Below, piece after piece: positions 4,242-43,680 of a DNA stretch of 64,000 nucleotides. Below the pieces are notes generated by a model. That model ran no database searches and was not told the DNA's origin. It saw nothing but the letters and a program-made list of their open reading frames with translations. Numbering within the stretch: the first letter of the stretch is position 1; each line of letters begins with the position of its first letter. Source of the stretch: a bacterium (GTDB lineage: Bacteria; Patescibacteriota; Minisyncoccia; Sungbacterales; SURF-37); assembly GCA_030648055.1 (NCBI GenBank), contig JAUSHI010000009.1, positions 176,769 to 240,768 of the forward strand, read 5' to 3'. The position numbers and the translations under genes were made by a program.

Positions 4242-4264
4242 GGTGATGCTTTATCTTAGTTAAG

Positions 4265-5626
4265 ATGAATGACGTAAATAAAATATTTGACGTGATGCGA
4301 AAAGAGATTGTTACAGTTATCGCAACCCTTTTTTTGGTGGTGGGCAGCGCTTTCTATTTCGGAGTAAAACAGTATTCTGTATACCAAGCAAAAAAAGGTG
4401 CAAAAGAAAAACAAATTCAGGAATTATTAATTACACAACAAAAAGCTCTAAAGGAGGCAAATCAAGAAATAGATATTTTAAAACAGCCCGCTACGAGATA
4501 TATTGGTTCACCAGCCGATATTTTAAAGAATAAGGCGCAAACACAGGCTGTTAGTAAAACTAATGCAGAAATAATTAAAAAAGTAAAGCCGGCTGTAGTT
4601 TACATTGAAACAGAGGATGGTTCTAGCGCTGGTAGCGGGATGATTATAGAATCGGCAGGTTTTATCCTCACCAATGCACATGTAGTACAAGGTGTTAATT
4701 CCGCTAAGATTAAACTTTCTGATAATAAGTCGTTTGTTGCAACAGTGATTGGTAGGGATGAAAATATAGATCTTGCAATTCTAAAAGTAGATGGAGGGGA
4801 TCTACCAACAGTCGAGCTCGGCAATTCTGATACCGCAGAACAGGGCGATGAAGTATTTACTCTTGGTTATCCTTTTGGTTTAGAGGGAGATGTGAGTTTT
4901 AAGGAAGGAACAATTTCGCGAAGAATTAGTGACGGAAGCACAACTTATTTGGAAACCTCGGCAGAAATTCATCCTGGAAATAGCGGGGGGCCACTCGTAA
5001 ACAGGCTTGGTAAAGTTATAGGTATAAACACAGCAATATTTGGGAAAAGCATAAAAGGAATTATTTTTGGAGAAAGCATCAAACTGGCAATTCCTATAAA
5101 TTCTGCAAAAAATGTAATTCCCGAATTAAAGTTAGGAAAAATAATAATCGGAAATCAATTACAACCGGAAACCAAGAAAGTCCTATCAGAAGAAGACGCA
5201 CGAGAGCAAAGAATTAGCGCTGTTATAACGAGAGCAAGAAGCTTACTAAGTGATATAGATAGCACTGTCAAAATTCTCTATACAAATATTGAATGGGTAA
5301 AATTAATAATAAACCAGCTTAATGCTTATAACTATCTATCCGGAAAAGCCGATAATGCCAAAATAAAAGAACTAAACGACTATTGGGTTAAAGACGCGAA
5401 TGGGACCATCAAGGCTCTTAATGATGAGTTAAGGCCGCTTGTGTTAAATGCAGTAAGCAGAGATTTTGTTAGTGACATTTATCATCCGTTGGGTTCGACT
5501 GAGAGCGATTTATACAGACAAGAGGCCGTGGTGAAAACTTATTGGACGAATGCCATAAATAAAAACGATGAATTCACTTCATTTTCTAAAGATTTAAGTG
5601 AGAGAATAAAAGTATGGCTTCAATAA
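4265..5626 (+). CDS. Membrane-anchored trypsin-like (S1C/HtrA-like) serine protease without PDZ, with an unknown C-terminal domain
   Basis: N-terminal TM segment. His (TNAHVV), Asp (DLAILKV) and Ser (GNSGGPLVN) catalytic motifs. Confidence 0.85.
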   Translation: MNDVNKIFDVMRKEIVTVIATLFLVVGSAFYFGVKQYSVYQAKKGAKEKQIQELLITQQKALKEANQEIDILKQPATRYIGSPADILKNKAQTQAVSKTNAEIIKKVKPAVVYIETEDGSSAGSGMIIESAGFILTNAHVVQGVNSAKIKLSDNKSFVATVIGRDENIDLAILKVDGGDLPTVELGNSDTAEQGDEVFTLGYPFGLEGDVSFKEGTISRRISDGSTTYLETSAEIHPGNSGGPLVNRLGKVIGINTAIFGKSIKGIIFGESIKLAIPINSAKNVIPELKLGKIIIGNQLQPETKKVLSEEDAREQRISAVITRARSLLSDIDSTVKILYTNIEWVKLIINQLNAYNYLSGKADNAKIKELNDYWVKDANGTIKALNDELRPLVLNAVSRDFVSDIYHPLGSTESDLYRQEAVVKTYWTNAINKNDEFTSFSKDLSERIKVWLQ

Positions 5627-5637
5627 AAGCTGACCGT

Positions 5638-5745
5638 AATGAAAAAACTCTGGCTAAAGAAAGTGTTGAAATCAAACAAAGAAATGCCAGTAACGCCGAG
5701 TTGGTAAAGCTCACAGAGGCAGTTCAAGCGCTGGCAAAAAAATAG
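5638..5745 (+). pseudogene. Displaced duplicate of the proS 3' end (last ~35 codons plus stop)
   Basis: Translates NEKTLAKESVEIKQRNASNAELVKLTEAVQALAKK*, compared with proS SEKTLKEKSVEIKKRSASNAELVKLTETVQILAKK*. No ORF lies upstream in that frame. Confidence 0.75.
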
Positions 5746-5772
5746 GGTACTACACCATTTTCATTTTAGCGA

Positions 5773-5806
5773 CGCGCAAGTTTTAGCAGGGGATTGCGCG
5801 TTTTTT
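5773..5806 (+). terminator. Intrinsic terminator following the proS remnant
   Basis: CGCGCAA-14 nt-TTGCGCG followed by TTTTTT. Confidence 0.65.
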
Positions 5807-5843
5807 GCTCTGTGTTATTGTATATGTTGTATATGAAGAGGGC

Positions 5844-5872
5844 TTGCATTTGTATAAGGAATGCACTATAAT
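5844..5872 (+). promoter_or_regulatory. sigma70-type promoter of lexA (leaderless geometry)
   Basis: TTGCAT-17 nt-TATAAT. The -10 ends 6 nt before ATG 5879. The ORF-track ATG at 5861 lies inside the promoter. Confidence 0.65.
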
Positions 5873-5878
5873 GTGTTT

Positions 5879-6538
5879 ATGCGCAATAAAAGTCTTACCC
5901 TTAAACAGCAGCGTGTTTACAGTTTCATCCAGGAATACCTCCGGAAACACAGGGAACCACCTACAATATTGGAGGTCGCCGAAATGCTTAAGGCCCCTTC
6001 TCTGCGCTCGGTTACCCAGTATTTTGAAGCTCTGGAAAGAAAGGGCTTGATTAGGCGGAAACGCCACAAAAAGCGCGGTGTTGAACTTGTGGAGATATTT
6101 CCAAGTGAAGAGATGGTCTCGGTTCCTGTATTTGCTTCTGCGGGGTGTGGAAGCCCAAGCGTAATTGCTGAGCGGACCTTTGATGAATTCGTGACCGTAT
6201 CCAAAAAAGTTGTACCGAACAAAAAGAAAGAGCGGCTGTATGTTATACGCGCAGTTGGGAAGTCGATGGAAGATGCTGGTATTAAGGATGGCGATTTGGT
6301 GCTTGTTGAACAAACAGGTCACGCCGAGAATAACGATCTCGTCGTTGTGATTATTGAGGATACTGCGGTTATAAAAAAGATTTCTTTCGCGAATAACGTC
6401 ATAATCCTTAATCCTGTCACGATCGATCCAGAATATCGTCCCATGATCATGCGCCGCGATTTCAATATTTTTGGGAAAGTTATTCAGGTCATTAATGTCG
6501 AACGAAATAATGATTATCAAATTATACCTATTCAATAA
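5879..6538 (+). CDS. lexA: LexA-like repressor (wHTH plus S24 peptidase)
   Basis: The N-terminus LTLKQQRVYSFIQEYLRKHREPPTILEVAEML..ALERKGLI is LexA-like. S24 Ser (AVGKSM) and Lys (AVIKKI) are present. The antisense 255-aa ORF is ignored. Confidence 0.85.
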   Translation: MRNKSLTLKQQRVYSFIQEYLRKHREPPTILEVAEMLKAPSLRSVTQYFEALERKGLIRRKRHKKRGVELVEIFPSEEMVSVPVFASAGCGSPSVIAERTFDEFVTVSKKVVPNKKKERLYVIRAVGKSMEDAGIKDGDLVLVEQTGHAENNDLVVVIIEDTAVIKKISFANNVIILNPVTIDPEYRPMIMRRDFNIFGKVIQVINVERNNDYQIIPIQ

Positions 6539-6539
6539 A

Positions 6540-6899
6540 ATGAAGAACAATAAAATAAATCAAGACGACTCAAATACCGGAAATAGAGAAACATTGTTAG
6601 AAAAGCGAGAAACAAAAGTGGTTGTGGGTTTTCCTGATAAAATAGGCATTGAGCTTGTGCAGGCAAACGAACTCCGACACTACGAATTGTTTCAGTGGCT
6701 TGTCATACTTGTTGCCCCGATTGCTGTTGGTTTTTGGACCGCATATGTGGCAGAACCATTAAGGCCGAACGCACTTTGGTGGAGTGCGCTTGCTTTTAGT
6801 GGATTTACAGTAATTTTTATTGCGTTTGCGGTTTATTATCGGCGAAAGGTATTTCACGGTAGCATTTTAAAAGAAATTTCTTTGGCTGAATTTAAGTAA
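6540..6899 (+). CDS. Small two-TM membrane protein (holin-like topology), unknown family
   Basis: The ATG lies 2 nt after the lexA stop. Two hydrophobic helices (LVILVAPIAVGFWTAYVA, ALAFSGFTVIFIAFAVYY) precede a charged C-terminus. Confidence 0.55.
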   Translation: MKNNKINQDDSNTGNRETLLEKRETKVVVGFPDKIGIELVQANELRHYELFQWLVILVAPIAVGFWTAYVAEPLRPNALWWSALAFSGFTVIFIAFAVYYRRKVFHGSILKEISLAEFK

Positions 6900-6912
6900 T
6901 AATTTTTAAAAT

Positions 6913-7695
6913 ATGGAACAATTTCTTTGGCCTCTTAAGAGGTCATCTGTAAAAATTTCTCAGCACTTTGGGAGTATTTGGTCGGCTAATAGTTCTAAAA
7001 AGCATACAGGAATTGATATTGCAGCTGTTCCTGGAGATGCGGTATACGCAGCAGCGGCTGGAATGGTGACGAAAACGGGGATTCTTGATACTACGGGGGC
7101 GTGGGCAAAATACGTCGTGCTTGAGCACGAGACAAAAGACTATTGCACCTCTTATCTTCACATTGAACCGAAAGTGGCTATTGGTCAGAAGCTAAATGTA
7201 GGAGATTTTGTTGGAGTTATTGCAGACATTTCAGCGCCGCACTGTCATTTTAATGTGTGGAAGAGCGTCCACGATGATAAACTAACTCAACGAGGGGCAT
7301 TACCGATCGTGTGTGCGGCGGGAGGCGATCCGGTATTTCCCAATAATTTTGTTGACCCACTATCTTTTAGTTATCGGTATGTTGATAGTGATACAATTCC
7401 CCCCACACCGATTGTTCCTTTATTTATTCGTAACTTGGTTCTTAATGATTCAGGTACAGATGTAAGTTTACTTCAGATATTGCTTAACAAAGATCCAGAG
7501 ACGACAGTTGCTACTACCGGCCCTGGATCGCCTGGACGGGAGACCAATTATTTCGGCGACTTAACAGAGAAGGCCGTGCAGAAATTTCAGGTTAAGTACG
7601 GCATCGTTTCTTTGGGTGCGCCGGGTTATGGTTTAGTAGGTTCTCTAACGAGGACAAAGCTACAGGAACTTTTTGGAAATCACTTAAATACTTGA
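6913..7695 (+). CDS. M23 family metallopeptidase with C-terminal peptidoglycan-binding (PG_binding_1-like) domain, no signal peptide
   Basis: HTGIDIAA (HxxxD) and HCHFNV (HxH) motifs. C-terminal LLNKDPE..YFGDLTEKAVQKFQVKYGI. Confidence 0.85.
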   Translation: MEQFLWPLKRSSVKISQHFGSIWSANSSKKHTGIDIAAVPGDAVYAAAAGMVTKTGILDTTGAWAKYVVLEHETKDYCTSYLHIEPKVAIGQKLNVGDFVGVIADISAPHCHFNVWKSVHDDKLTQRGALPIVCAAGGDPVFPNNFVDPLSFSYRYVDSDTIPPTPIVPLFIRNLVLNDSGTDVSLLQILLNKDPETTVATTGPGSPGRETNYFGDLTEKAVQKFQVKYGIVSLGAPGYGLVGSLTRTKLQELFGNHLNT

Positions 7696-7721
7696 TTTCT
7701 ATAAATCCAATATCGGAATAG

Positions 7722-7754
7722 CCACCCCAAAACCCCTGCAAAAATCGGCATGAT
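7722..7754 (+). repeat. Cassette-junction motif, copy 1
   Basis: CCACCCCAAAACCCCTGCAAAAATCGGCATGATG; matches the AAACCCTTGCAAAAATCGGCATAATG family. Confidence 0.8.
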
Positions 7755-7781
7755 GGGTAGATTCTGCTGTTATCGTATCCG

Positions 7782-7810
7782 TTGCATTATCAGAAATTTA
7801 GTGATAGTAT
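7782..7810 (+). promoter_or_regulatory. sigma70-type promoter of hicB-like gene (leaderless geometry)
   Basis: TTGCAT-17 nt-TAGTAT, then 6 nt to ATG 7817. Confidence 0.55.
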
Positions 7811-7816
7811 GACTGT

Positions 7817-8149
7817 ATGGTGAAATTAACTCAAAAAAATGAACAAGAAATTGAGCGATTACGCGGTCTTTTCCTCTCTGAAATAGAAGTAGTGGTTCAG
7901 AGGTCTGAGGATGGCGGTTTTTTTGCTAAAATCTTGACTCTAGAAGGCTTATTTACGGAAGCAGAAACCTTTTCTGAACTTATTGAGATGGTAAATGACG
8001 CAGTTATGACTTACTTTGAGGTTCCGAGGCAGTATGTTTCGTACATGCCAAGTTATGTTCCCTCACTTAAGGTGGCACAAGAATTCGGTGTGTTTCCGGC
8101 GTTTCCTCAAAAGAAAGAAATTACATTACCACTTGCTGTAAATATGTGA
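7817..8149 (+). CDS. hicB: HicB-like antitoxin
   Basis: HicB/UPF0150-like N-terminal fold signature (GGFFAKILTLEGLFTEAETFSELIEMVNDAV). There is a 4-nt ATGA overlap with the next gene. Confidence 0.65.
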   Translation: MVKLTQKNEQEIERLRGLFLSEIEVVVQRSEDGGFFAKILTLEGLFTEAETFSELIEMVNDAVMTYFEVPRQYVSYMPSYVPSLKVAQEFGVFPAFPQKKEITLPLAVNM

Positions 8150-8376
8150 GCGCGTCTAGGAATATAAAAATTGCAGATTGTTCGTATGAAAAAATTATCC
8201 GCATCGCAGAGCGATGCGGATTTCTGGTTCAAGAAGGCAGGAAGCATGCCAAAATCAAAACCCGCGATGATAAATTTATCACAGCGGTTCCAAGACATAG
8301 CCGGCTGAAGCGCGAGACGGCGAGGGCAATTGTAGAGGCGCTTAATGCAAAGGGGGCGGCTATTTCATACGCATAG
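8146..8376 (+). CDS. hicA: HicA-like mRNA interferase toxin
   Basis: Size and pattern match HicA: ..IAERCGFLVQEGRKHAKIK...ITAVPRHSRLKRETARAIVEAL. Confidence 0.65.
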   Translation: MSASRNIKIADCSYEKIIRIAERCGFLVQEGRKHAKIKTRDDKFITAVPRHSRLKRETARAIVEALNAKGAAISYA

Positions 8377-8410
8377 AGGTTTATCAAGATTATTTTTGTA
8401 TAAGTAATTT

Positions 8411-8442
8411 AACCCTTGCAAAAAGCGGCATAATGTAGCAGA
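8411..8442 (+). repeat. Cassette-junction motif, copy 2
   Basis: AACCCTTGCAAAAAGCGGCATAATGTAGCAGAAT. Confidence 0.8.
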
Positions 8443-8517
8443 ATTCTCGCGACCATAAGGCGATCGTGCTGGGCTAGTCCCCACTGAGAGCCCTAAAAAT
8501 AGTTGTGTATAAAGCTA

Positions 8518-8545
8518 TTGACAGAAAATTGATGGCGAGTATAAT
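8518..8545 (+). promoter_or_regulatory. Consensus sigma70 promoter upstream of the NYN gene
   Basis: TTGACA-16 nt-TATAAT. Confidence 0.7.
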
Positions 8546-8560
8546 GTAATTACTATGATC

Positions 8561-8596
8561 ACCACCTCTGCCTTCGGGCAAGGGTGGTTTTCTTTT
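8561..8596 (+). terminator. Promoter-proximal intrinsic terminator with UUCG tetraloop (attenuator or tiny sRNA)
   Basis: ACCACCUCUGCC-UUCG-GGCAAGGGUGGU followed by UUUUCUUUU. It lies about 10 nt after the predicted TSS and 24 nt before ATG 8620. Confidence 0.65.
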
Positions 8597-8619
8597 GGAT
8601 AATTTGCTATAAGTTATTT

Positions 8620-9168
8620 ATGTTTGATAAAGAAAAAGTAGCCATTTATATAGACGGCAGCAATTTTTATCACTATTTAAAAGACAAAGAAATATCTTTC
8701 CCCAAAGGTGTTAAATTCGATTTTAAGGCATTTGTCGATTTTTTGGTAAACGACAGGAATTGTATTTCAAAAAGATATTATACGGGCGTATTTAGAAATG
8801 TAGATAACAGCATTAAAAGCCAAGAACTTGTGAGGGGGCAACAGAAATTTTTATCGGAAATAGAAAATGACGGTTTTGTTATAAAACGCGGCCGAATCAT
8901 GTATGATAGCGGGAAAACAAGAGAAAAAGGAACCGATGTAAAAATTGCCATCGACCTGATTATTGGAGCAATTGATAATATATATGATACCGCCATATTG
9001 GTCAGTTCTGACACAGATTTGGTTCCGGCTATACAATACATTAGATATAAAAAGAAAAAGTTAGAGTATGTCGGCTTTTCTCACGCGCCGTCTTTTGGTA
9101 TCCAAAAGTATGCTAATTTTTCTAGATTACTTTTGCCATTAGATATAGAAAAATTTAAAGGCAGATAG
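8620..9168 (+). CDS. NYN/LabA-like (PIN-related) domain protein
   Basis: VAIYIDGSNFY, GTDVKIAIDLI and AILVSSDTDLVPAIQY acidic motifs. The ATG at 8620 is preferred over the GTG at 8584, which lies inside the terminator hairpin. Confidence 0.8.
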   Translation: MFDKEKVAIYIDGSNFYHYLKDKEISFPKGVKFDFKAFVDFLVNDRNCISKRYYTGVFRNVDNSIKSQELVRGQQKFLSEIENDGFVIKRGRIMYDSGKTREKGTDVKIAIDLIIGAIDNIYDTAILVSSDTDLVPAIQYIRYKKKKLEYVGFSHAPSFGIQKYANFSRLLLPLDIEKFKGR

Positions 9169-9187
9169 CTTTTTACCGAGATCATAC

Positions 9188-9215
9188 TAAAACCCTTGCA
9201 AAAATCGGTATAATG
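9188..9215 (+). repeat. Cassette-junction motif, copy 3
   Basis: AAAACCCTTGCAAAAATCGGTATAATGG. Confidence 0.8.
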
Positions 9216-9243
9216 GAGCGGGGTGTCTTGCCGAGAGTTAGTT

Positions 9244-9789
9244 ATGAAAAACGCAATCTTATTACACGGGACAGGGGGTTCACCAAAATTATATTGGTTT
9301 CCTTATCTTATAGAAAATTTAAAAAAGAAGGGGTATAGCGTTTGGGCCCCACAACTACCGAACGCCAAAAAACCTAATCTGGAAGATTGGCTTCCGTTTG
9401 TTTTTAAAAATGGAAAATTTAACAAGAATACGGTTTTTGTCGGACATTCTGCCGGTTCGCAGTTAATTTTGAGTATTTTGGAAAATATTAATGTGAAAAT
9501 TAATAAGGCCATACTGGTATCCGGTTACGCAGAGCCGTTGCTAAAAAACTCGAGGGCGAAAAACAAAAGTAAATTTGCGTGGAAGAAGATTAAAAAACAT
9601 GCCGGCAGTTTTATTTTTATTAATTCCGATAACGACCCCTGGGAATGTACCGATAAGCAGGGTAAAATCATGTTGGATCAACTCGGCGGCACGCTGGTTA
9701 TTCCGAAGGGGCAAGGCCACATGGGATCAACTACTTATAAACAACCGTATAAGAAATTCCCATTACTTGTTAGATTAGCGTGTGATTGA
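9244..9789 (+). CDS. Alpha/beta serine hydrolase (YdeN/RBBP9-like)
   Basis: MKNAILLHGTGGSP start and GHSAG nucleophile elbow. About 180 aa, as is typical of this family. Confidence 0.7.
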   Translation: MKNAILLHGTGGSPKLYWFPYLIENLKKKGYSVWAPQLPNAKKPNLEDWLPFVFKNGKFNKNTVFVGHSAGSQLILSILENINVKINKAILVSGYAEPLLKNSRAKNKSKFAWKKIKKHAGSFIFINSDNDPWECTDKQGKIMLDQLGGTLVIPKGQGHMGSTTYKQPYKKFPLLVRLACD

Positions 9790-9812
9790 TTTCTACCGAG
9801 GCCCCTTTATTT

Positions 9813-9840
9813 ATAGGACAATTCCATAGAATTGTCCTAT
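9813..9840. repeat. Palindrome P1 copy a (12-4-12)
   Basis: ATAGGACAATTC-CATA-GAATTGTCCTAT, 28 nt upstream of the GNAT ATG. Confidence 0.9.
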
Positions 9841-9867
9841 GAAGCAATTTCATCTCCTGAACAGTTT

Positions 9868-10329
9868 ATGCTTACAATACGAAAATCTAAAAAACGAGAT
9901 ATAAATAAACTCGCGAAAATTTATAAGCGGGCTTATCATCGTTCAAAAGACGGCGAGGATTGGAGTGTTCCAAAAGCAAGGGCCTTGCTCAATTTTTATT
10001 TCAATCAAAAAACATTTATCGGTCTTACAGCACTTCTTGATGATAAAATGGTTGGCGCATTCTTTTCTTTCGTAAAGCCCTGGCACGACGGGAATCATTT
10101 GGGGGAGGGAGAATTATTCGTTGACCCGGATTATCAGAATCGTAAAATAGGTACGGATCTTTTCTTTCAGATGATCAAGATTGCAGAAAAGAAAGGATGC
10201 ACAATTCACGAGTTGCTTGCTTATGGGAGAGTTGCGCGGTGGTACAAAAAGCTGGGAATTAAGGAGGTCGGTTTAAAGCACATGCAGGGGAAGATAAAAG
10301 ATATCATAAGAAGAATGGGCAGAAATTAA
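9868..10329 (+). CDS. GNAT family N-acetyltransferase
   Basis: MLTIRKSKKRDINKL start and acetyl-CoA motif A (VDPDYQNRKIGTDLF). The TTG at 9832 lies inside palindrome P1, so ATG 9868 is preferred. Confidence 0.8.
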   Translation: MLTIRKSKKRDINKLAKIYKRAYHRSKDGEDWSVPKARALLNFYFNQKTFIGLTALLDDKMVGAFFSFVKPWHDGNHLGEGELFVDPDYQNRKIGTDLFFQMIKIAEKKGCTIHELLAYGRVARWYKKLGIKEVGLKHMQGKIKDIIRRMGRN

Positions 10330-10335
10330 ATATAT

Positions 10336-10367
10336 CCATAGGACAATTCCATAGAATTGTCCTATGG
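10336..10367. repeat. Palindrome P1 copy b (14-4-14)
   Basis: CCATAGGACAATTC-CATA-GAATTGTCCTATGG, 7 nt after the GNAT stop. Confidence 0.9.
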
Positions 10368-10385
10368 AGTAATTTCACCCTTTTC

Positions 10386-10432
10386 CCACCCCGAAGACCA
10401 CACTCAAAACTCTTGCAAAAATCGGCAGAATG
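10386..10432 (+). repeat. Cassette-junction motif, copy 4 (diverged)
   Basis: CCACCCCGAAGACCACACTCAAAACTCTTGCAAAAATCGGCAGAATG. Confidence 0.7.
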
Positions 10433-10440
10433 TTTATTGA

Positions 10441-10464
10441 ACAATTCCATAGAATTGTCCTATG
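10441..10464. repeat. Palindrome P1 copy c (left arm truncated)
   Basis: ACAATTC-CATA-GAATTGTCCTATG. Confidence 0.8.
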
Positions 10465-10473
10465 CTCTGAAGG

Positions 10474-10513
10474 CCACCCCCAAACCCTTGCAAAAATCGG
10501 CATAATGTAGCAG
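10474..10513 (+). repeat. Cassette-junction motif, copy 5
   Basis: CCACCCCCAAACCCTTGCAAAAATCGGCATAATGTAGCAG. Confidence 0.8.
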
Positions 10514-10631
10514 GGTCTTTGCGATCTCAACTAAGATTTCTTAATAAGGTATGGGAAGTTGTCTTCAAAAATGCTTTAATGATTTTATTGTTGGTAATCT
10601 AATACTGGATGGGCTAGGCGCCGTTGATTAT

Positions 10632-10659
10632 TTGACTTTTATAAATTTTGTTATATAAT
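10632..10659 (+). promoter_or_regulatory. sigma70-type promoter of the 1093-aa ORF (leaderless geometry)
   Basis: TTGACT-16 nt-TATAAT, then 6 nt to ATG 10666. The ORF-track TTG at 10648 lies inside the promoter. Confidence 0.6.
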
Positions 10660-10665
10660 AATGCC

Positions 10666-13600
10666 ATGCAACAGGGTGGTTATGAAAAAGTGCAATCGCC
10701 TCAAGAAGGAGGTATTGCAACACGTCTTTCAGCTGAAGAAATAAAACGCTTCAACGAGCTTTTGCCGTTAGAAATGGGTTATTTTTTGATAAGTATATTT
10801 AAATGTCAGCGGAGGTATGAGGATTTTGAACAACGGTGGAATCATGTATATACAGTAGAGGGGAAAAGAGAATTATTGAATGCGAGGAAACAATGGGTGG
10901 AGATGAAAAAAGGGGGGGAGGCGTTTGAAGGATTTTTTGTTGAGAAAATGCGGGAGGTGCTTAATGCACCGATATATGACGGGTCCCTTATGTATACATT
11001 CCTACATATTTATTCAAATCTTGGTTATAACAACGCCACGGTGTTTTTGGGTGAGGCGCTTACCCATAAATCAGTGCGGGATGCTGGTGACGGAAGTAAC
11101 GTGCATACCATTCTTGAGACGTTGAGCGGGTTGCAAGATCCGGCGGCGGCACCGGCAGTCATAGAGCATATTGGGCATATCACTGCCGAGGAGTATACTA
11201 GAAAACAACATTGTGACACCGATCTTTATTGTGCTGTTAAGGCACTGAAGGGGTTTCTTGGCGATGAAACAAAAAAGACGCTGGAAACGCTTGCTGATAA
11301 AGACCTTACTTTTGCGGGGTGGTTTGCGAAAAATAAAGCCACGCTTTTTAGCGAAAAATCGCTTACATCAGCAAAAAAATTGGAATTTGATGAGTTTGAC
11401 CCGAAAGTTGAGGACATGCGCATAAAGGTGCTGGAACAGGAGTACGAAGATTTTCGTCAAAGTCCGCCGCCGATGCCGGAAGTTGACTGGAGTGTTGGTA
11501 AGACTCCTTCTTGGACGTCTCCATTTACGTCTCCATTTGAAGATAAAAAAGGCGAAACGCTTTTTATGCCTTCTACGTTTGCTCCGATATACAAAAAATT
11601 ACCGCCAGGTGCGGAGAAAAAGTCAGGGTTTGAAAAAGGCGGAGCGCTGGATACTCTTGATTTGCGCGCAGAAGAATGGGAAAAAGGGAAGCTTGTAAAT
11701 TTTTATGGCAGGTTCAGGCCTAAAATAGAAAAGGGAGTAACGCTTACCGAAGAGAATTATCTCCGTAGTATTTTTGCTACGGCTGATGCGTCCAAAGAAA
11801 AATCAAGCTGCGCAAGTTATACTAATTTTCTCGCCGGAATTGTGTCGCCAGAAAGTGTAAAAACCGAGTTGCCGGAAAAATTGGATGTGGGCAATGCTTA
11901 TCGCATAGCCGCCCTCGCTTTTGGTCGCGCGCTTTGCCTCGGAGTTCTGGAACAAAAAAGCACGCAAGGAATTCGCGAGATTGACCTCGTGAAGGATTTT
12001 TTTGCAAAAGAGGCGGAGAAAATGGCCGATACGGCGGACATATCATTTATGCTCGCGCTTTCTTCCCAGTTGGGAAGCGCCCAAGAATATCTTGCCATGG
12101 AAAAGGGAACACCTCCGCGTAACTTGCCCGAAAGCGCGGCTTCATTTTTCCTTAATCACCCCGCCACGGGCAGGATCCGTGAAATCCCCGATTTCCACGA
12201 GCTTCTTGCAGAAAAAATCAGATGGTATCTCGCAAACGATTTTTTTTATAATTTGCAAGAGGTTGTGTTAGAAAAGGAGCGCGAAGGAGTTATTGTCCCG
12301 AGCCGTGGCCCCTCGTTTAAGAGAATACGAAGTATTATTGACGAGTATGAACGAGCGCTTAATATGTACCGAGACGTTGATAGTCGTGACATTCCTATTT
12401 ACTGGGAGGCATCGGAGAAGTTAAAAGAATTTGGCGCAGATCGGATTGCGGTTTTTGGGAGAGACGGACGCTATTTTTTTTCAGCGCTCAAGGCGGCAGA
12501 GTTCGGCACAAAAGAGCGAGTTCTGAAATATGTTGTTGTTACTTCGCATATGGGTTCTCCCGAGATGAAAAATTATGTTGTCAACTATCTTCGCCAAAAT
12601 GGAGTAACACTTGATTTTACTTTCATTGACACCGGGTTTGCCGGTAGTGTTCCAGAATTTTCAATAAGATATCTTGCCGAGGCCGAAGGGGTTTCTTTGA
12701 GCTATGAAGAAGTTGATAAGAGAATAAAACTTCTTTCTTCGGCATCTCCCAAAAGGCGGCATGAACTTTCGCTGGGCAAAAGGAGTTATGCGAGAGGCGA
12801 TGCAGTCAGCGTCATTGAGGAAAGGCCAAAAGTTATAGCGAGCCCAGTACGATTTGTTGTAGATGAGCGTGGAAAAATAAAACCTGAAATACTCCCGAAC
12901 ATGGTACGTGAGCAACTAAGTGCTTGGGTGGTAGAACACGCAACTGTGCGGAGTTTTGCGCCAAAGTTTGATCCTACCCATTTGCCAGTTGAGTTGGGAA
13001 TTACGCCGTCGCGCCTTATGGAGCTCCAAAAAATTGGACTTACCCCCGAGATGATTCTTGGGCAAGAGCATGTTTTTCCCGTAGAGGAAAAAACAAAAGA
13101 ACGGCGGAAGCGGTTTTCGGCTTTTTTGAAGGAACATTTGGGGGATATCAGTAGCTCAAAGCGGCAGGAGCTTTTGGATGACGCAGTACGGCTTTATGAG
13201 GTGAGTAGAGACATAGTTGGGCCGGTTATGAAAGATTTTTCCGCGTGGGCGCTTGAAAAATTGCCAGCAGGGCAGAAACTTTTGTTTCTCGCCAGAGACG
13301 CGCTCGGACCATGGATGGCAGCACGCCTGCTTGTCCGCAAAGGAGAGTTTCCCGGAGTCAGCGAGGACCAACTTCGTTACGCATTTTTGTCTCGCAAGGT
13401 GATGCATACCGAGAGCGGCGCGGATATTAAAAAATATTTGGAGCAGGTTGGTGTGCGCGACGACAAAGAATCTTTGACTATGGTTGATGTCGGCGTGTAT
13501 GGAGATATACACCACGCACTTAAAAATTTATATCCAAAAAAGAGTTTGAAGAGTTTATTTTTTATTTCGGATGCCGGCGGCGAGGAGTTTGAAGGTTTCT

Positions 13601-13947
13601 TGTATGACAGTGCAAGGGGCGGGGATAAATTGGATTCAATGTGGAAGTCTATTTCTGGGAATTCGGCGGTGCATTTTATAGAGGATACATTTTCTGGTTT
13701 TTACGGTTCAACCAAGGGTTTTACAGAGAACCCGAATGGAACCATCCAGCCAAGGTTCGGCGCGCCTTATTCCCGCGAGGTGTATCTAAAACGTCTTGCC
13801 GCCTTGACTGGCATTATTGATCGAGCCCTTCTTGGCAATGACGGTAAGAGTGCGGAAGAGCATAAAAGGGCCCTTGAAGTATATCTTTCCGAAGTATTTC
13901 CCGGAGAAAAACAGCACCTGATGGTACCTCACGAAATAATTAAATAG
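10666..13947 (+). CDS. Large (1093 aa) protein of unknown function with HEAT-like N-terminal region and an internally duplicated C-terminal module
   Basis: Long uninterrupted ORF. Two similar modules: IAVFGRDGRYF..FIDTGFAGSVPE..VIEE and LLFLARDALGPW..MVDVGVYGDIHH..FIED. No family was recognised with confidence. Confidence 0.7.
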   Translation: MQQGGYEKVQSPQEGGIATRLSAEEIKRFNELLPLEMGYFLISIFKCQRRYEDFEQRWNHVYTVEGKRELLNARKQWVEMKKGGEAFEGFFVEKMREVLNAPIYDGSLMYTFLHIYSNLGYNNATVFLGEALTHKSVRDAGDGSNVHTILETLSGLQDPAAAPAVIEHIGHITAEEYTRKQHCDTDLYCAVKALKGFLGDETKKTLETLADKDLTFAGWFAKNKATLFSEKSLTSAKKLEFDEFDPKVEDMRIKVLEQEYEDFRQSPPPMPEVDWSVGKTPSWTSPFTSPFEDKKGETLFMPSTFAPIYKKLPPGAEKKSGFEKGGALDTLDLRAEEWEKGKLVNFYGRFRPKIEKGVTLTEENYLRSIFATADASKEKSSCASYTNFLAGIVSPESVKTELPEKLDVGNAYRIAALAFGRALCLGVLEQKSTQGIREIDLVKDFFAKEAEKMADTADISFMLALSSQLGSAQEYLAMEKGTPPRNLPESAASFFLNHPATGRIREIPDFHELLAEKIRWYLANDFFYNLQEVVLEKEREGVIVPSRGPSFKRIRSIIDEYERALNMYRDVDSRDIPIYWEASEKLKEFGADRIAVFGRDGRYFFSALKAAEFGTKERVLKYVVVTSHMGSPEMKNYVVNYLRQNGVTLDFTFIDTGFAGSVPEFSIRYLAEAEGVSLSYEEVDKRIKLLSSASPKRRHELSLGKRSYARGDAVSVIEERPKVIASPVRFVVDERGKIKPEILPNMVREQLSAWVVEHATVRSFAPKFDPTHLPVELGITPSRLMELQKIGLTPEMILGQEHVFPVEEKTKERRKRFSAFLKEHLGDISSSKRQELLDDAVRLYEVSRDIVGPVMKDFSAWALEKLPAGQKLLFLARDALGPWMAARLLVRKGEFPGVSEDQLRYAFLSRKVMHTESGADIKKYLEQVGVRDDKESLTMVDVGVYGDIHHALKNLYPKKSLKSLFFISDAGGEEFEGFLYDSARGGDKLDSMWKSISGNSAVHFIEDTFSGFYGSTKGFTENPNGTIQPRFGAPYSREVYLKRLAALTGIIDRALLGNDGKSAEEHKRALEVYLSEVFPGEKQHLMVPHEIIK

Positions 13948-13959
13948 TGTCTCTCTATT

Positions 13960-15381
13960 ATGGTAGAAGAATTTTCGCCTTATAGCGATCGAGGAAAAGA
14001 GGGGTCTGAATCATTTAAGCATGTCTGGGAAGAAATAGAAAAGAATGTGATGCCAAAAACGCTTGCCGGCACCAGTTTTGAAATTCCGTATAAGCTGATA
14101 ACAGCGCGACAATTGGTTACGCGCGCAGAATTTGCGAAAGAAACGGCGAAAGCCGCGGATTCATATCAATATATTGGGCGGAAGGTTAACCGTAAGACAT
14201 TCATACACCCTCTTTCGCATAATGAATACATGGTAATTAAAAGCAATCGTGGAAATTCGCCGCAGCTTTTTTTCTCTTATGACAGCAAAGGAAGAGAGGT
14301 CGCTGAACAGTTGGCTTTTGGTAAAAAATATTCGCCTGAAGATATATCAACAGCGCAGGTATCGCGCTTTTCAGAACTCATAAAGGATGAACGAATGGTT
14401 GAGCTTTCGCGAGTTAGAGAAGGCATAAACATAAAAGGGCGAGAGCGCCTTCGCATTGGTTACATACATTTTAAAGATGCGATTCCTCGCGTAGAAATGC
14501 TTCTCACAGAAGATGCGTGGAAAGAGCCGGTGGAGCGCGATGCTGCTGATTATTCTACTAAAGGTGTTGTTGTGAAGCGCGGAGAAGCGGGCTTGACAGA
14601 AGTAATTTTGTTCGCTAAGGCTCAATCTCGGCATTGGAACAATGCAACAGTTTTTGCGGCGGCCTTATATAAAGACGGTGCCCTTCTGGGTTTAGTTGAA
14701 CAAGAAATTCCACTTAAAGAACTGTCGATTTTTGAAGAAATTTTTCAGGAAAATCCGCAGGCGCTTTTTGACGCATTACAGCACGGCGTAAAGTCCGACG
14801 CTAAAGTTCCAGCGCGCGAATTGGGAGAGAGGGCATCGTTCAGTTTTCCGGCAACGCTTGATTCGGAAAATATTTTACAGCGTGTTGCTGGCGATAAGCA
14901 GTTTGAATTGCCGGTTATTTTTAATGGTAAAACATTGCCAAAAGTTCTTGAGGAAAAGGGAGAGGTTCGCGTTGACCCCGAAGCTGATGAGGATTTAAAT
15001 CGCGCTATAACGGACCTGAAGCGTGAATTTGGTGATTCGCTTCTTGGGGTTTATTTTTATGGGAGCATTCCGAGAGGGTATAAGCATCTGCAATCGGACG
15101 TTGATGTGATTGCCGTTATTGACGATAAAGAACCTTTGGTGCGGCCACTTCGCGGTTTTGAAATGGAGCCGTCATTTAAGGGTGGCGAACTTATCCATGG
15201 AGCAATAGGCAGTTATCATGCGCGTTCCCGCATGTATCCTTTTCGAAGCATTGAAGTACACACCATTTACAAAAAAAGATGGGGAAAACCTTCAAACTTT
15301 CGTTTGGGAGAATTTTTACGAAATGTGCGCGATGGCGCTGTAGAGATTTATAAAAAACAAAATAGTGCGGCGCAAAATTAA
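13960..15381 (+). CDS. Unknown-function protein with C-terminal minimal (Pol-beta-type) nucleotidyltransferase domain
   Basis: GVYFYGSIPRGYKHLQSDVDVIAVIDD matches the G-S..x(9-10)..D-x-D NTase signature. It starts 13 nt after the preceding ORF. Confidence 0.7.
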   Translation: MVEEFSPYSDRGKEGSESFKHVWEEIEKNVMPKTLAGTSFEIPYKLITARQLVTRAEFAKETAKAADSYQYIGRKVNRKTFIHPLSHNEYMVIKSNRGNSPQLFFSYDSKGREVAEQLAFGKKYSPEDISTAQVSRFSELIKDERMVELSRVREGINIKGRERLRIGYIHFKDAIPRVEMLLTEDAWKEPVERDAADYSTKGVVVKRGEAGLTEVILFAKAQSRHWNNATVFAAALYKDGALLGLVEQEIPLKELSIFEEIFQENPQALFDALQHGVKSDAKVPARELGERASFSFPATLDSENILQRVAGDKQFELPVIFNGKTLPKVLEEKGEVRVDPEADEDLNRAITDLKREFGDSLLGVYFYGSIPRGYKHLQSDVDVIAVIDDKEPLVRPLRGFEMEPSFKGGELIHGAIGSYHARSRMYPFRSIEVHTIYKKRWGKPSNFRLGEFLRNVRDGAVEIYKKQNSAAQN

Positions 15382-15466
15382 GGGAGCTGGTTTAAAGTTT
15401 AGTACGTAGATATATTTGTTTTGTCTACGTGCTGATGGCTCTAATAGCGTTTACGAGTGCTATAGC

Positions 15467-15500
15467 AAAACCCTTGCAAAAATCGGCATAATGTCGCAGA
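15467..15500 (+). repeat. Cassette-junction motif, copy 6
   Basis: AAAACCCTTGCAAAAATCGGCATAATGTCGCAGA. Confidence 0.8.
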
Positions 15501-15517
15501 ATGCCCCTGTAGTTATG

Positions 15518-15648
15518 CCGGGTAGTGAAAATTCGAATAGTCGCAAAGCGACAAAGAAAGGGTAGTTTTCATGTCCTGGTAGAGCAATATCTCATTCTTC
15601 CGCTTCTTAAGTTTTATGAATAAATTAATTCGAATTTCTACTACCCGG
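15518..15648 (+). promoter_or_regulatory. Family-1 leader element A: long closing helix ending 1 nt before the mreB ATG
   Basis: 5' arm CCGGGTAGTGAAAATTCGAAT pairs with 3' arm ATTCGAATTTCTACTACCCGG. The interior holds a GTCGC-AAA-GCGAC hairpin. The same arms occur at 33483-33690. Confidence 0.7.
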
Positions 15649-15649
15649 T

Positions 15650-16705
15650 ATGTTAAATAAAGTCTTTGGGTTATTCTCAAAAGATATAGGTATTGACCTT
15701 GGAACGGCGAACACACTCGTGTATGTGCGCGGTCTCGGTATTATCATAAACGAGCCTTCGGTAGTGGCGATAAATCAGAAAACCGGGCTTGTTGTCGCGG
15801 TGGGTGCTGAGGCAAGGAAAATGGTGGGCAGAACCCCGGCCTATATTTCTGCCGTGCGTCCGCTTCAGGAGGGTGTGATCTCCGACTTTGAAGTGACGGA
15901 AGAAATGATCCGTTATTTTATTCAGCGTGCTCACAAAGAAACTTTTTCGCTTTTTCCGAGGCCCAGAGTAGTCATCGGCATTCCTTCGGAAGTAACTGAA
16001 GTTGAAAGGAAGGCGGTTGAAGATGCCGCACGCAATGCCGGAGCTAGGGAAGTATATCTTGTGGAAGAACCGATGGCCGCGGCCATCGGCATAAGAATGC
16101 CGGTGCAGGAAGCGATGGGTTCCATGATTGTTGATATAGGCGGCGGCACTACCGATATAGCTGTAATTTCACTTGGCGGAATAGTTGCTTCTAAAAATCT
16201 GCGAATCGCGGGCGACAGACTGAACGGCGATATTATTCGCTTTGCCCGGGATGAATATAAATTATTGCTTGGTGAAAGAACCGCTGAAGATATTAAAATT
16301 GCCATCGGTTCCGCTTTTGAATTAAAAGAGTCGCTGCAGACGGTAATGCGGGGAAGAGACCTTGCCACCGGACTTCCTAAAGAAATTTTTGTTGATGATT
16401 CCGAGGTGCGCCGAGCTATGCGCCATTCCATAAATACGATTGTAAGCGCGATTAAGGGGACCATAGAGGTAACCCCCCCTGAACTTGTTGCCGATATTAT
16501 GGCCAACGGTATAACATTGGTGGGCGGCGGGGCGCTTTTGAGAGGCCTTGATAAATTGATCCAGGCCGAGACAAAAATCACGGTAAAAGTCGCCGAGGAT
16601 CCGCTTTCAGCGGTTGTGCTGGGTACTGGTGTTATACTTGAAGATATTGACGCTCTGCGGAATGTTTTGGTGACAGGTGAATATCAAAGGGCACCGCGTA
16701 TATAG
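15650..16705 (+). CDS. mreB: Rod-shape protein MreB (actin-like ATPase)
   Basis: IGIDLGTANTLVY phosphate-1, DIGGGTTD phosphate-2, LVGGGALLRGLD adenosine motif. Confidence 0.95.
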   Translation: MLNKVFGLFSKDIGIDLGTANTLVYVRGLGIIINEPSVVAINQKTGLVVAVGAEARKMVGRTPAYISAVRPLQEGVISDFEVTEEMIRYFIQRAHKETFSLFPRPRVVIGIPSEVTEVERKAVEDAARNAGAREVYLVEEPMAAAIGIRMPVQEAMGSMIVDIGGGTTDIAVISLGGIVASKNLRIAGDRLNGDIIRFARDEYKLLLGERTAEDIKIAIGSAFELKESLQTVMRGRDLATGLPKEIFVDDSEVRRAMRHSINTIVSAIKGTIEVTPPELVADIMANGITLVGGGALLRGLDKLIQAETKITVKVAEDPLSAVVLGTGVILEDIDALRNVLVTGEYQRAPRI

Positions 16706-16757
16706 GACATAATTCTTAAAAGAGCGGCTGTGTATCAAAAGTTAGGCAGATAAAATA

Positions 16758-17537
16758 ATGACACCAAGAGACATTAAAAATATTGAATTTTTAATATTTA
16801 TAGTAACCGCCGGGTTGCTTGTTTTTTTAAGCATTGTCGGCGGCCTTCGTCCGCTAACAAATTTGGTTTCGCGCGTTACCGTTCCGCTACTTTCTTTTTC
16901 CACCAGTATTTTTAGAACCACCGGAAATTACCAAACTCTTCAGGATGAAAACGCCAAACTTAAAAGCCAGCTTGCTGACGCCGATTCTCTAAAAAAAGAG
17001 AATGAAAATTTGCAAAAAGCGCTATCGCTTGGTTATGAGGAAGGGCGGAGAATTCTTCCGGCATCCAGGATTGGGTTTTATCGTTTTTTTGATAACGAGA
17101 TTATTATTATTGATCGTGGCGTTGAGGCGGGTGTTGCCGCGGGCGATATTGTTCAGACCGCAGATAAAGTATATGCGGGCAAGGTAATTTCAAGCACTTC
17201 GGGCCGAGCCGATGTTTTGCTTGTGACAAGCCGGAATCAAGTTATTGATGTTACATTTACAAATTCAAATATTCGCGCGAGGGCGCGGGGTATTAACGGT
17301 AGAGAATTCGCGATTGATTTTGTTCCTGAAAACGCAGAAATACATAAGGGCGATCTTTTTATCGTGACTCCGAAGGCGGGGAATAAGGCATCAAACCTCG
17401 TGCTTGGCGAGATTCGCGAAATATCGTCTGACGAAAGCCATGTTTTTAAAATAATACGCGCCCTTCACCTTTTTGATTCTCTGGGCGACGCGACTCTTTT
17501 TGTCTCTCCGTCAGATAAATTATTACCTCGGTATTAA
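16758..17537 (+). CDS. mreC: Rod-shape protein MreC
   Basis: N-terminal TM, then coiled-coil (LQDENAKLKSQLADADSLKKENENLQ), then beta-rich domain. Position after mreB. Confidence 0.8.
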   Translation: MTPRDIKNIEFLIFIVTAGLLVFLSIVGGLRPLTNLVSRVTVPLLSFSTSIFRTTGNYQTLQDENAKLKSQLADADSLKKENENLQKALSLGYEEGRRILPASRIGFYRFFDNEIIIIDRGVEAGVAAGDIVQTADKVYAGKVISSTSGRADVLLVTSRNQVIDVTFTNSNIRARARGINGREFAIDFVPENAEIHKGDLFIVTPKAGNKASNLVLGEIREISSDESHVFKIIRALHLFDSLGDATLFVSPSDKLLPRY

Positions 17538-17666
17538 ATTTCACAACTCACGCCACAGCAAGGCGTTTCCTGCCTGCCGGCGCTTATTACGAGATGGTTC
17601 TATTCGGGCCACGCGCCTTGCGGATGATATGGTAAATTATGCTCCTGTTCTTATTTTGTTATACTG

Positions 17667-17792
17667 ATTAAGGCGAAATTAGTGAGGGGGTGAAAAGCGT
17701 TTAAATAGCCTTTCGCTGGTTTTCCGAGAAGACCGCGAAGCGGTCCTCGCGGGACTAAACCCGGGAAAATAATTTGTAGCTACTCGCTTAAT
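17667..17792 (+). promoter_or_regulatory. Structured leader element C upstream of mreD, containing the conserved module also found at 33503-33580
   Basis: Closing helix ATTAAGGCGA/TCGCTTAAT. Module 17688-17765 has three helices, each with compensatory differences from the copy at 33503-33580. Confidence 0.65.
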
Positions 17793-17807
17793 GCTCGCAG
17801 ACAAATT

Positions 17808-18320
17808 ATGAATTTTTTTATAGCCATTTTTATTTTTACCGTTGCTTTATTTTTAGAGCTTGTTTTTGTGCCAAAAATTTTGGGAGTTTTTCTTCCTTTG
17901 TCGGTTTGGGCCGCGGCCGCGGTTTTCGCTACGTTTAATACGCGGCGGGCTGTTATTTTTTCTCTTGTGGCCGCGTTTTTGGAGACACTTTTTTTGCCCA
18001 ATTTCGGCGGGTTTTTCTTTTTTATTTTTCTCGGAGCGGTAGCCGCGGTATTTTTATTCAGACACTGGTTTGACGGTGTTGGTTTTGTCTATGATTTCGC
18101 GGCTTTAGTGGTGGCTCTCTTTTTTTGTGAATTTTTATTGCCGCTGGTTCTGGTGTTTTTAAACCCTTACGGCTTCGGCAATCCGGCCCTTCCATTGAGT
18201 TACGGTATGGTTATTTTGCCAAGCGCGTTTATTTTTGATGTTTTTTTTGTGTTGTTTTTCGGCCTGATTCTGTATTTTTATGAAAGCGGGCGGAGCGTTA
18301 GACGCATGAAATATGTTTGA
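17808..18320 (+). CDS. mreD: Polytopic membrane protein in the MreD position
   Basis: 170 aa, 5-6 hydrophobic helices. Located between mreC and mrdA and overlaps mrdA by 8 nt. The call rests on synteny. Confidence 0.55.
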   Translation: MNFFIAIFIFTVALFLELVFVPKILGVFLPLSVWAAAAVFATFNTRRAVIFSLVAAFLETLFLPNFGGFFFFIFLGAVAAVFLFRHWFDGVGFVYDFAALVVALFFCEFLLPLVLVFLNPYGFGNPALPLSYGMVILPSAFIFDVFFVLFFGLILYFYESGRSVRRMKYV

Positions 18321-33455: not shown

Positions 33456-33482
33456 TATTAATGTATTATACTATATATAGGT

Positions 33483-43676: not shown

Positions 43677-43680
43677 ATAA

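Follow-up and report, generated by a model that had tools for sequence, protein, structure and literature searches.

Short regulatory repeats lying upstream of unrelated genes have been described in T4-type phages, where they are termed promoter-early stem-loops (PeSLs) (Arbiol et al., 2010, PMC2839356; Comeau et al., 2014, PMC4122927). They consist of conserved early promoters with stem-loops, are located upstream of ORFans in hyperplastic regions and number ~50 per genome; promoter and terminator activity have both been shown experimentally, and recombination between the repeats gives rise to module shuffling and mini-circles (Arbiol et al., 2010, PMC2839356). A second class, the putative mobile promoters (PMPs), comprises sequences of 50–100 nt with at least 80% identity that are scattered in genomes (Matus-Garcia et al., 2012, PMC3488235). 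Here a related arrangement is described in a 64,000-nt stretch (the window) of contig JAUSHI010000009.1, from a Candidatus Sungbacteria member of the candidate phyla radiation (CPR), in which six direct copies of one short repeat separate the cassettes of an accessory gene array lying upstream of the mreB operon. There is about an even chance that this motif serves as a portable repeat of promoter type, marking junctions where cassettes are recombined much as PeSLs do; its promoter activity and its part in recombination are both inferred.

Bacterial chromosomes and plasmids offer further points of comparison. Integron arrays hold co-oriented, unrelated small cassettes, often toxin–antitoxin pairs, with a related repeat between them, and units lacking an open reading frame (ORF) occur. 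The minimal mobile elements of Neisseria, and chromosomal hotspots between conserved genes, are alternative cassettes found in the same interval in different strains of naturally transformable bacteria, with no dedicated recombinase known to take part. In the pdif modules of Acinetobacter plasmids, short Xer sites surround small modules that often carry toxin–antitoxin genes.

The repeat is built around a 26-nt core, AAACCCTTGCAAAAATCGGCATAATG, which matches the window six times with two mismatches or fewer, always on the + strand; the expectation from 100 dinucleotide-preserving shuffles is 0 matches. A profile hidden Markov model and a position weight matrix made from 12 copies, six from the window and six from relatives, place these six sites at 42–48 bits (E ≤ 3e-9), and there is no seventh copy in the 64 kb, the next best profile match reaching 11.6 bits (E = 1.4). 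All six are intergenic and confined to 7.8 kb, as had been claimed in the initial annotation, which reported six intergenic copies in the same orientation and none elsewhere. Three of the starts given there (7722, 10386 and 10474) hold for an optional CCACCCC extension and not for the core, which begins at 7730, 10407 and 10482 respectively. The conserved unit is 26–32 nt long, at most ~45 nt with extensions. Repeat finding recovers the same family with an optional upstream GCCACCCC(C). Copies 1 and 5 carry the CCACCCC extension, as does copy 4, where a 13-nt insertion sets it apart from the core. The downstream tail, (G/T)AGC(A/G)G...GGTCTTTGC, is less conserved. The copies are as follows.

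Copy 1: 7721–7755, + strand, core 7730–7755; GCCACCCC and a core with 2 mismatches (CTGCAA, CATGAT), in the gap between the M23 peptidase and the hicB-like gene.
Copy 2: 8410–8444, + strand, core 8410–8435; 2 mismatches and the conserved tail GTAGCAGAAT, in the gap between HicA and NYN.
Copy 3: 9189–9221, + strand, core 9190–9215; the hexamer is a perfect TATAAT, upstream of the hydrolase.
Copy 4: 10386–10432, + strand, core 10407–10432; CCCACCCC, a 13-nt insertion and a core with 2 mismatches, followed only by a palindrome.
Copy 5: 10473–10515, + strand, core 10482–10507; perfect core with prefix GCCACCCCC and tail GTAGCAGGGTC, upstream of the giant ORF.
Copy 6: 15467–15514, + strand, core 15468–15493; perfect core with leader GTCGCAGAATGCCCCTGTAGTT, before mreB.

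The leader of copy 6 is common to the mreB-proximal copies of relatives, and a ~135-nt insertion specific to the window lies between copy 6 and mreB. An independent assembly (L003, Logan SRR13727527) matches positions 10338–17747 of the window at 100%, copies 4–6 included, and the repeat is therefore not an assembly artefact. The mapping of the motif covers the 64 kb of the source contig together with short contigs of relatives. The latter, retrieved through homologues of MreB, HtrA and RibD_C, reveal three motif-bearing lineages.

Lineage 1: the window itself.
Lineage 2: contigs L004, L001, L169 and L005, MreB 92% identical; the order is aminoacyl-tRNA synthetase, HtrA, degenerate motif, hicBA, motif in L169 and L005, and RibD_C-like gene, motif, NYN, motif, mreB in L004 and L001.
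Lineage 3: contigs L007 and L002, MreB 87% identical; the order is motif, hicBA, motif, mreB.

In lineages 2 and 3 the motif is always found at mreB and at the accessory unit(s) directly upstream. Between the window and L004, L005 and L007 it is 100% identical over 32 nt, whereas the DNA of mreB is 72–79% identical and that of the other core genes 65–75%. The NYN proteins encoded behind the motif in the window and in a relative share 27% identity over 78 residues, and the HicB-type proteins so compared show no similarity. As the downstream genes are unrelated, shared gene ancestry cannot explain the identity of the motif. The alignments suggest that every position of the motif is under selection, or that the repeat moves between lineages with the cassettes, and the data favour both.

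Evidence for such movement comes from the cassettes themselves. Their content between motif copies differs among the three lineages, so that the identical order in all relatives which the initial annotation had set against cassette gain and loss is not observed. The hicBA blocks of L005 and L007 are 92–98% identical (60-nt windows) and the adjoining mreB 68–83%, and the step in identity is located directly behind the motif copy next to mreB, past its GCAGAATGCC tail; this is the apparent signature of a cassette exchanged between lineages together with its 3' motif. A homologue of the RibD_C-like cassette gene (85% amino acid identity) is located in a different, motif-free context on eight contigs, which indicates that the motif belongs to the array and not to the genes. 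L004 and L005 agree at 100% from where the motif starts to 1.2 kb into mreB, and upstream they are wholly different (NYN versus hicBA), possibly as the result of a swap between strains that broke within the motif. Between L002 and L007 the identity is 99% downstream of a point inside hicB and ~70% upstream of it, and in L002 a degenerate motif tail and an mreB-type leader precede hicB. This pattern points to ordinary homologous recombination in these populations and to duplication of the motif plus leader on insertion. Finally, none of the three lineages has a mismatch in its mreB-proximal copy, and the distal copies have 1–5 mismatches, which fits the strongest constraint being at mreB, cassette entry at the mreB end, or both.

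The motif is absent from seven relatives with an MreB 85–89% identical. In L008, L009, L010, L167 and L006 the synthetase adjoins mreB, or one small reverse ORF lies between them, and there are no cassettes; in L168 and L178 the region compared is the 127–218 nt upstream of mreB. A neighbour-joining tree of MreB, a single gene giving weak resolution, groups the three motif lineages with the motif-less L006. The absence of the motif from cassette-free mreB loci indicates that it travels with cassette insertion and is not ancestral upstream sequence. Two of the motif-less contigs, L006 (9900–10000) and L009 (~2100–2216), repeat part of the mreB 5' end (~12 codons), interrupted by a GC-rich hairpin, just upstream of the real start; the synthetase–mreB junction thus appears to be rearrangement-prone even without cassettes. 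A motif spread over core promoters, by which the initial annotation would have recognized a plain promoter variant, is seen neither in the remaining ~56 kb of the window nor in the 5–11 kb of core flank downstream of mreB in L004 and L007.

These comparisons bear on the proposal that the copies have no function and are relics of passive duplication, by which each insertion would have doubled the sequence before mreB and gene conversion would have kept the copies similar. The motif tail and leader upstream of hicB in L002 do suggest duplication on insertion, the locus is prone to duplication (the synthetase 3' end after HtrA, see below, and the mreB 5' end in L006 and L009) and the distal copies are the more degenerate. 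Gene conversion within a genome, however, cannot give 32 identical positions out of 32 between lineages, for which the chance at coding-region rates is ~0.75^32, or ~1e-4. The substitutions that are tolerated fit a −10 element (see below), and motif-less relatives show the ancestral region upstream of mreB without the motif. Relics of this kind are therefore regarded as very unlikely.

Database searches place the repeat within a small group of organisms. Among the GTDB species-representative genomes a strict degenerate pattern gives 0 matches and a relaxed pattern 117 single matches in unrelated taxa; none is a true copy, and with at least seven mismatches to the 32-nt motif outside the pattern they are due to chance. 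The IMG/VR viral contigs similarly yield 39 single chance matches and no true copy, and BLAST of the motif with its flanks gives 0 matches in plasmids and one chance match in phages. Only two short Hainich groundwater contigs match in the metagenome collection, both of this locus type. The searches with HtrA and RibD_C homologues returned one motif-bearing contig (L169) and eight motif-less contexts. In the sequences covered, the repeat is lineage-specific, marking every junction of the array between synthetase/HtrA and mreBCD-PBP2 in a narrow Candidatus Sungbacteria clade.

The array and its flanks contain the following genes and units.

2976–7695, + strand: left flank of the variable interval, with the synthetase, HtrA, a duplicate of the synthetase 3' end, LexA, a 142-aa ORF and the M23 peptidase.
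2976–4241, + strand: class II aminoacyl-tRNA synthetase (Pfam).
4265–5626, + strand: HtrA-type protease (Pfam).
5861–6538, + strand: LexA (Pfam).
6913–7695, + strand: M23 peptidase (Pfam).
7817–8376, + strand: cassette 1, a hicB-like ORF and HicA toxin, with its own promoter TTGCAT-N17-TAGTAT at 7782–7810.
8518–9168, + strand: cassette 2, an NYN-domain nuclease, with its own consensus promoter at 8518–8545.
9223–10329, + strand: cassette 3, an alpha/beta serine hydrolase and a GNAT acetyltransferase (Pfam).
Between copies 4 and 5: an 'empty' unit of 75 nt that holds a palindrome only.
10648–15381, + strand: cassette 5, a giant ORF of 1099 aa and an ORF of 473 aa, with their own promoter at 10632–10659.
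15650–20286, + strand: core operon after copy 6, with mreB, mreC, a 170-aa ORF and PBP2 (Pfam).

The Pfam assignments uphold the earlier description of the motif as bracketing hicBA, NYN, hydrolase plus GNAT and giant ORF plus nucleotidyltransferase units, with the last copy before mreB. The hicB-like ORF has no Pfam match and the giant ORF no family match; the 473-aa ORF has weak nucleotidyltransferase matches, and the NYN nuclease is assigned by PADLOC to candidate defence families (HEC-09/NYN). The G+C content is 0.38 at 8–10 kb, within the cassettes, versus 0.44–0.48 in the core flanks. The whole interval from synthetase to mreB is transcribed in one direction, with few terminators between its genes. 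The last ~105 nt of the synthetase (4137–4244) are duplicated after HtrA (5641–5748; 75% identical) and are followed by a terminator hairpin at 5770–5805; judged by its sequence, the duplicate is a probable footprint of HtrA having been inserted there by recombination. In the NYN leader a terminator-like hairpin (CCACCTCTGCCTTCGGGCAAGGGTGG then TTTTCTTTT) is found at 8568–8587, between the promoter and the start codon at 8622, and could represent an attenuator or a ~45-nt small RNA.

A second repeated element of the array is a 12-4-12 palindrome, ATAGGACAATTC-CATA-GAATTGTCCTAT, of which the window has six perfect copies.

9813–9840: within the array, abutting the GNAT start codon.
10337–10365 and 10436–10464: within the array, flanking motif copy 4.
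48975–49004, 49952–49981 and 50358–50387: outside the array, flanking a 293-aa ORF, an ArsR-family helix–turn–helix (HTH) gene (50036–50296) and a methyltransferase.

Plausibly, this palindrome is the operator for the ArsR-type protein encoded there, or else marks cassette junctions of a second kind, with a stem-loop. A direct repeat of 45 nt (9808–9852 and 10333–10377; 91% identical), which takes in the palindrome and the first GNAT codons, stands on either side of the GNAT gene.

The motif itself has several features of a promoter. Its hexamer, (C/T/A)A(T/G)(A/G)AT, changes at positions 1, 3 and 4, and A2 and T6 are invariant in 12 of 12 copies; these are the most critical positions of −10 elements. 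In L002, L004, L005 and L007 the distance from the end of the motif to the mreB ATG is 27 nt, which leaves no room for another promoter. Similarly, 29 nt separate the end of copy 3, with its TATAAT, from the hydrolase start codon (ATG at 9245), and they contain no promoter-like site. In L004 the NYN gene is followed by a terminator-like hairpin and T-run (586–605), and there is no other sigma-70-like site between this hairpin and mreB, so that the essential mreB operon appears to depend on the motif. A second hexamer 16–17 nt past TTGCAA (CAGAAT, or TAGATT in copy 1) is observed in 7 of the 12 copies, including all mreB-proximal copies and copies 1 and 2. The initial annotation held that the motif is not a canonical sigma-70 promoter on account of the 7 nt between TTGCAA and CATAAT. 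This spacing is correct, but promoter function was underrated, given the short distance to mreB, the L004 hairpin and the invariant A2 and T6.

A number of observations weigh against reading the motif as a promoter-type repeat at which cassettes recombine. The TTGCAA-N7-CATAAT spacing is not that of canonical sigma-70 promoters, no −35-like hexamer lies 16–18 nt upstream of CATAAT and the motif goes undetected in a consensus promoter scan. Promoters of the form TTGACA-N16/17-TATAAT are clearly in use in this genome, including those before NYN (12 of 12 consensus positions) and the giant ORF (11 of 12), which, with the visible hicB promoter, are the downstream promoters reported earlier. As several cassettes thus possess their own promoters, expression does not call for most copies of the motif. 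Its 26 positions carry ~48 bits, far above the need of a −10 element. With regard to recombination, the metagenome-assembled genome supplying L004 also has a contig, L169, that matches the left part of L005 exactly, and the join in L005 could be an assembler shortcut across the 32-nt repeat.

The surplus of conservation can also be read as an operator or activator site, or an alternative-sigma promoter, that co-regulates the accessory genes with mreB while cassette turnover is generic and unrelated to the motif. Conservation extends to the spacer and to the upstream AAACCC, beyond RNA polymerase contacts, and TTGCAA stands 7 nt from the −10 hexamer, as an activator box would. The 12-4-12 palindrome by the ArsR-type gene resembles a true operator, and the genome thus uses shared sites. 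The motif, in contrast, is neither palindromic nor a clear direct repeat, and no regulator is consistently linked to it, LexA lying by the array in the window but not in L005/L169. No match is seen by eye to the sigma-54, sigma-28 or ECF consensus, there is no obvious rationale for co-regulating toxin–antitoxin or nuclease genes with mreB, and co-regulation does not account for the absence of the motif wherever cassettes are absent. Co-regulation of this type is judged to be quite unlikely.

Individual candidates for a binding site or for other promoter classes were likewise set aside. The sigma-54 (GG-N10-GC), sigma-28 (TAAA-N15-GCCGATAA), extracytoplasmic function (ECF; GAAC-N16-CGT) and T7/T3-type promoters give no convincing fit when the consensus sequences are compared by eye. 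A GGCAT-N11-ATGCC arrangement is found in the mreB-proximal copies only; as a LexA operator it was rejected, its second arm being missing elsewhere and LexA not being adjacent to the array in L005/L169. The promoter of LexA itself contains TGCATT-N9-AATGCA. Separately, the promoters of hicB (7805–7819) and the giant ORF (10654–10668), and positions 180–194 of L007, have the form TA(T/G)(A/T)AT-N6-ATG, with the −10 box 6 nt before the start codon, an arrangement that suggests leaderless mRNAs in this organism.

The junction position of the motif raises the question of a dedicated recombination system. As a site of site-specific recombination the motif has little structure: it shows neither dyad symmetry nor a conserved fold (RNAalifold, 3 invariant pairs, −1.2 kcal/mol), and the single-stranded DNA folds of eight copies are no better than those of shuffles (z-scores −1.5 to +1.3). 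The motif is accordingly not attC-like or dif-like. No consistent stem-loop stands beside it, copies 4 and 5 alone being preceded by the 12-4-12 palindrome. Pfam scanning of the ~65 ORFs of the window identifies no recombinase, transposase or sigma-factor domain and no IntI or Phage_integrase match, in agreement with the earlier statement that no integrase is present, and the gene lists of L004 and L007 include no recombinase. The motif also lacks the inverted repeats of miniature inverted-repeat transposable elements and repetitive extragenic palindromic sequences, and is found at a single locus. Reading the CCACCCC prefix as a tRNA 3' end or att site was rejected because there is no T-arm-like sequence, and a DNA uptake sequence because such sequences are dispersed genome-wide and the motif is not.

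Compared with integrons, the locus shares cassettes that are separated by a repeat, differ from one relative to the next and have their boundaries at that repeat. It differs in that the window has no IntI and the motif no attC-type imperfect palindrome or fold and no GTTRRRY core; the motif is 26–32 nt long versus ~60–140 nt for attC, and is far more conserved in sequence than is usual for attC. The integron analogy drawn in the initial annotation is thus retained as regards a cassette junction, since content varies with a boundary at the motif, and given up as regards attC structure and an integrase in the window. A Xer/dif site (~28 nt with two 11-nt inverted arms and a 6-nt spacer) likewise differs from the core in its dyad symmetry. 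The motif does include GCATAATGTA, which resembles the XerC arm and spacer start of E. coli dif; unlike Xer and pdif sites, it has no second inverted arm except for the GGCAT-N11-ATGCC of the mreB-proximal copies. Furthermore, its copies are all direct whereas pdif sites alternate in orientation, and the window has no Xer gene.

The copies may nevertheless be attachment or crossover sites dedicated to a site-specific recombinase encoded elsewhere, in an integron-like gene-capture platform with a linear, non-palindromic site that might also work as a promoter facing outward. A direct-oriented copy is found at every cassette junction, the 'empty' unit included; cassettes vary by lineage with the hicBA identity boundary at the motif, and the motif is found only in genomes with cassettes at this locus. 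Its ~48 bits are typical of recombinase sites, the contigs of relatives break at or beside it (L004 begins 2 nt before), and the RibD_C-like gene is without it in its other context. These points are offset by the lack of any tyrosine or serine recombinase or transposase domain in the scanned window ORFs or the L004 and L007 gene lists, and by the lack of inverted-repeat architecture and of a conserved fold. The 3' edge of conservation is fuzzy, with a decaying GTAGCAG...GGTCTTTGC tail and no sharp crossover point, and the decay of distal copies fits relaxed constraint. A dedicated recombinase site is accordingly viewed as possible but unlikely. Somewhat further reaching, and doubtful, is the idea of a hitherto unknown CPR gene-capture platform, in which a linear, non-palindromic site of 26–32 nt would act both as crossover point and as outward promoter keeping mreB expressed, with an unlinked or novel recombinase or with short-homology recombination after uptake. 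It is just as doubtful that, in such a platform, new cassettes would enter at the perfect mreB-proximal copy while older, distal copies decay.

An element acting at the RNA level, within read-through transcripts, was also considered: a processing site, a small-RNA target or an ATG-TAG start–stop. In its favour, the genes from the synthetase to mreB are co-oriented with few terminators, and in 8 of 12 copies CATAATGTAG has an ATG directly followed by TAG. Copies 1, 3 and 6 and the distal L007 copy nevertheless lack the ATG-TAG, no Shine–Dalgarno sequence precedes the ATG and there is no conserved RNA structure. Rfam gives no match at gathering score in the window and one irrelevant match at E ≤ 1 in 7600–10700. 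An RNA-level role is extremely unlikely.

For a portable promoter-type junction repeat, the following mechanism can be proposed. The (C/T)ATAAT would be the −10 element, and TTGCAA possibly also a −35 element for the second hexamer (CAGAAT/TAGATT) downstream. Each unit inserted between synthetase/HtrA and mreB would come with a copy of the motif. Because cassettes cut the essential mreB operon off from its ancestral upstream gene, the mreB-proximal copy is proposed to restore transcription of the operon. The identical direct repeats of 26–32 nt would be the sites of cassette gain, loss and exchange between strains and lineages, through recombination of one copy with another, as for the PeSLs; the simplest route would be homologous recombination following the uptake of DNA. 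A length of 26–32 nt is near the minimum for RecA-dependent recombination in E. coli, and CPR bacteria commonly encode DNA-uptake machinery.

The likeness to PeSLs lies in short regulatory repeats upstream of unrelated, non-essential genes that delimit modules differing between close relatives; two of the six motif copies are in addition preceded by a stem-loop palindrome. PeSLs, however, have canonical sigma-70 −35 and −10 elements and a terminator stem-loop, whereas the motif has non-canonical spacing and most copies are without a stem-loop. PeSLs also belong to phage genomes, and the motif, known here by its sequence, to one locus of a CPR chromosome. With PMPs it has in common highly similar upstream sequences before non-homologous genes, within and between genomes; it differs in its core of 26–32 nt (at most ~45 nt), shorter than PMPs, in its single array and in coinciding with cassette boundaries. 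In view of the non-canonical geometry, the stem-loop at two copies only and a core below PMP length, membership of either class is not claimed. The alternative cassettes within the same interval between conserved flanking genes recall those of Neisseria, which differ in using flanking core-gene homology and in having no internal junction repeat. The locus is best described as a further case of promoter-type junction repeats mediating modular shuffling, a principle already known, here on a CPR chromosome and at a single hotspot beside an essential operon.

Other features of the window were noted in the course of the analysis. Four copies of a 34-nt palindrome (AACATTCTCACATTCT-TGA-GAATGTGAGAATGTT) at 43659–45171 surround tRNA-Gln (44063–44135) and an HTH_17 plus Fic/DOC pair (44451–45121); this region is another small accessory unit bounded by repeats. 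A ~110-nt repeat at 17660–17766 and 33470–33581 (81% identical over 79 nt) consists of a TTATACT −10-like box followed by a predicted structured leader. The first copy precedes an mreD-like gene and PBP2; the second precedes ORF 33693 and a VirD4/TraG-like ATPase. Related boxes occur at 15517–15550 and 2955–2975, and a GGTAGTGAAAATTCGA box is contained in the ~135-nt insertion between copy 6 and mreB. RNAalifold predicts 38 pairs from the two copies, six with compensatory double changes, and Rfam gives no match; the repeat is a candidate for an undescribed cis-regulatory RNA. Besides the LexA at 5861–6538, a complete LexA (DNA-binding domain and S24 peptidase) fused to an N6/N4 DNA methyltransferase is encoded at 46081–47604 on the − strand. 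The ATPase, at 34106–36529, is an 807-aa VirD4/TraG-type coupling protein (TrwB_AAD_bind, T4SS-DNA_transf) in an otherwise chromosomal context, and may have a bearing on how this CPR lineage transfers DNA.

CPR bacteria, or Patescibacteria, have tiny genomes with few recognizable mobile elements and almost no experimental genetics, and to our knowledge little is understood of the ways in which they gain accessory and defence genes and express them. The locus provides a concrete and testable example, a single hotspot by an essential operon where an ultra-conserved sequence divides unrelated toxin–antitoxin, nuclease and enzyme cassettes. Should this repeat act as a promoter and also be a substrate of recombination, the principle of mobile regulatory cassettes, so far demonstrated in T4-type phages, would extend to bacterial chromosomes. 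It would also supply a natural promoter part for CPR biology and a simple sequence tag by which to find variable cassettes in metagenomes. Should a dedicated recombinase be involved, it would represent a new kind of integron-like system.

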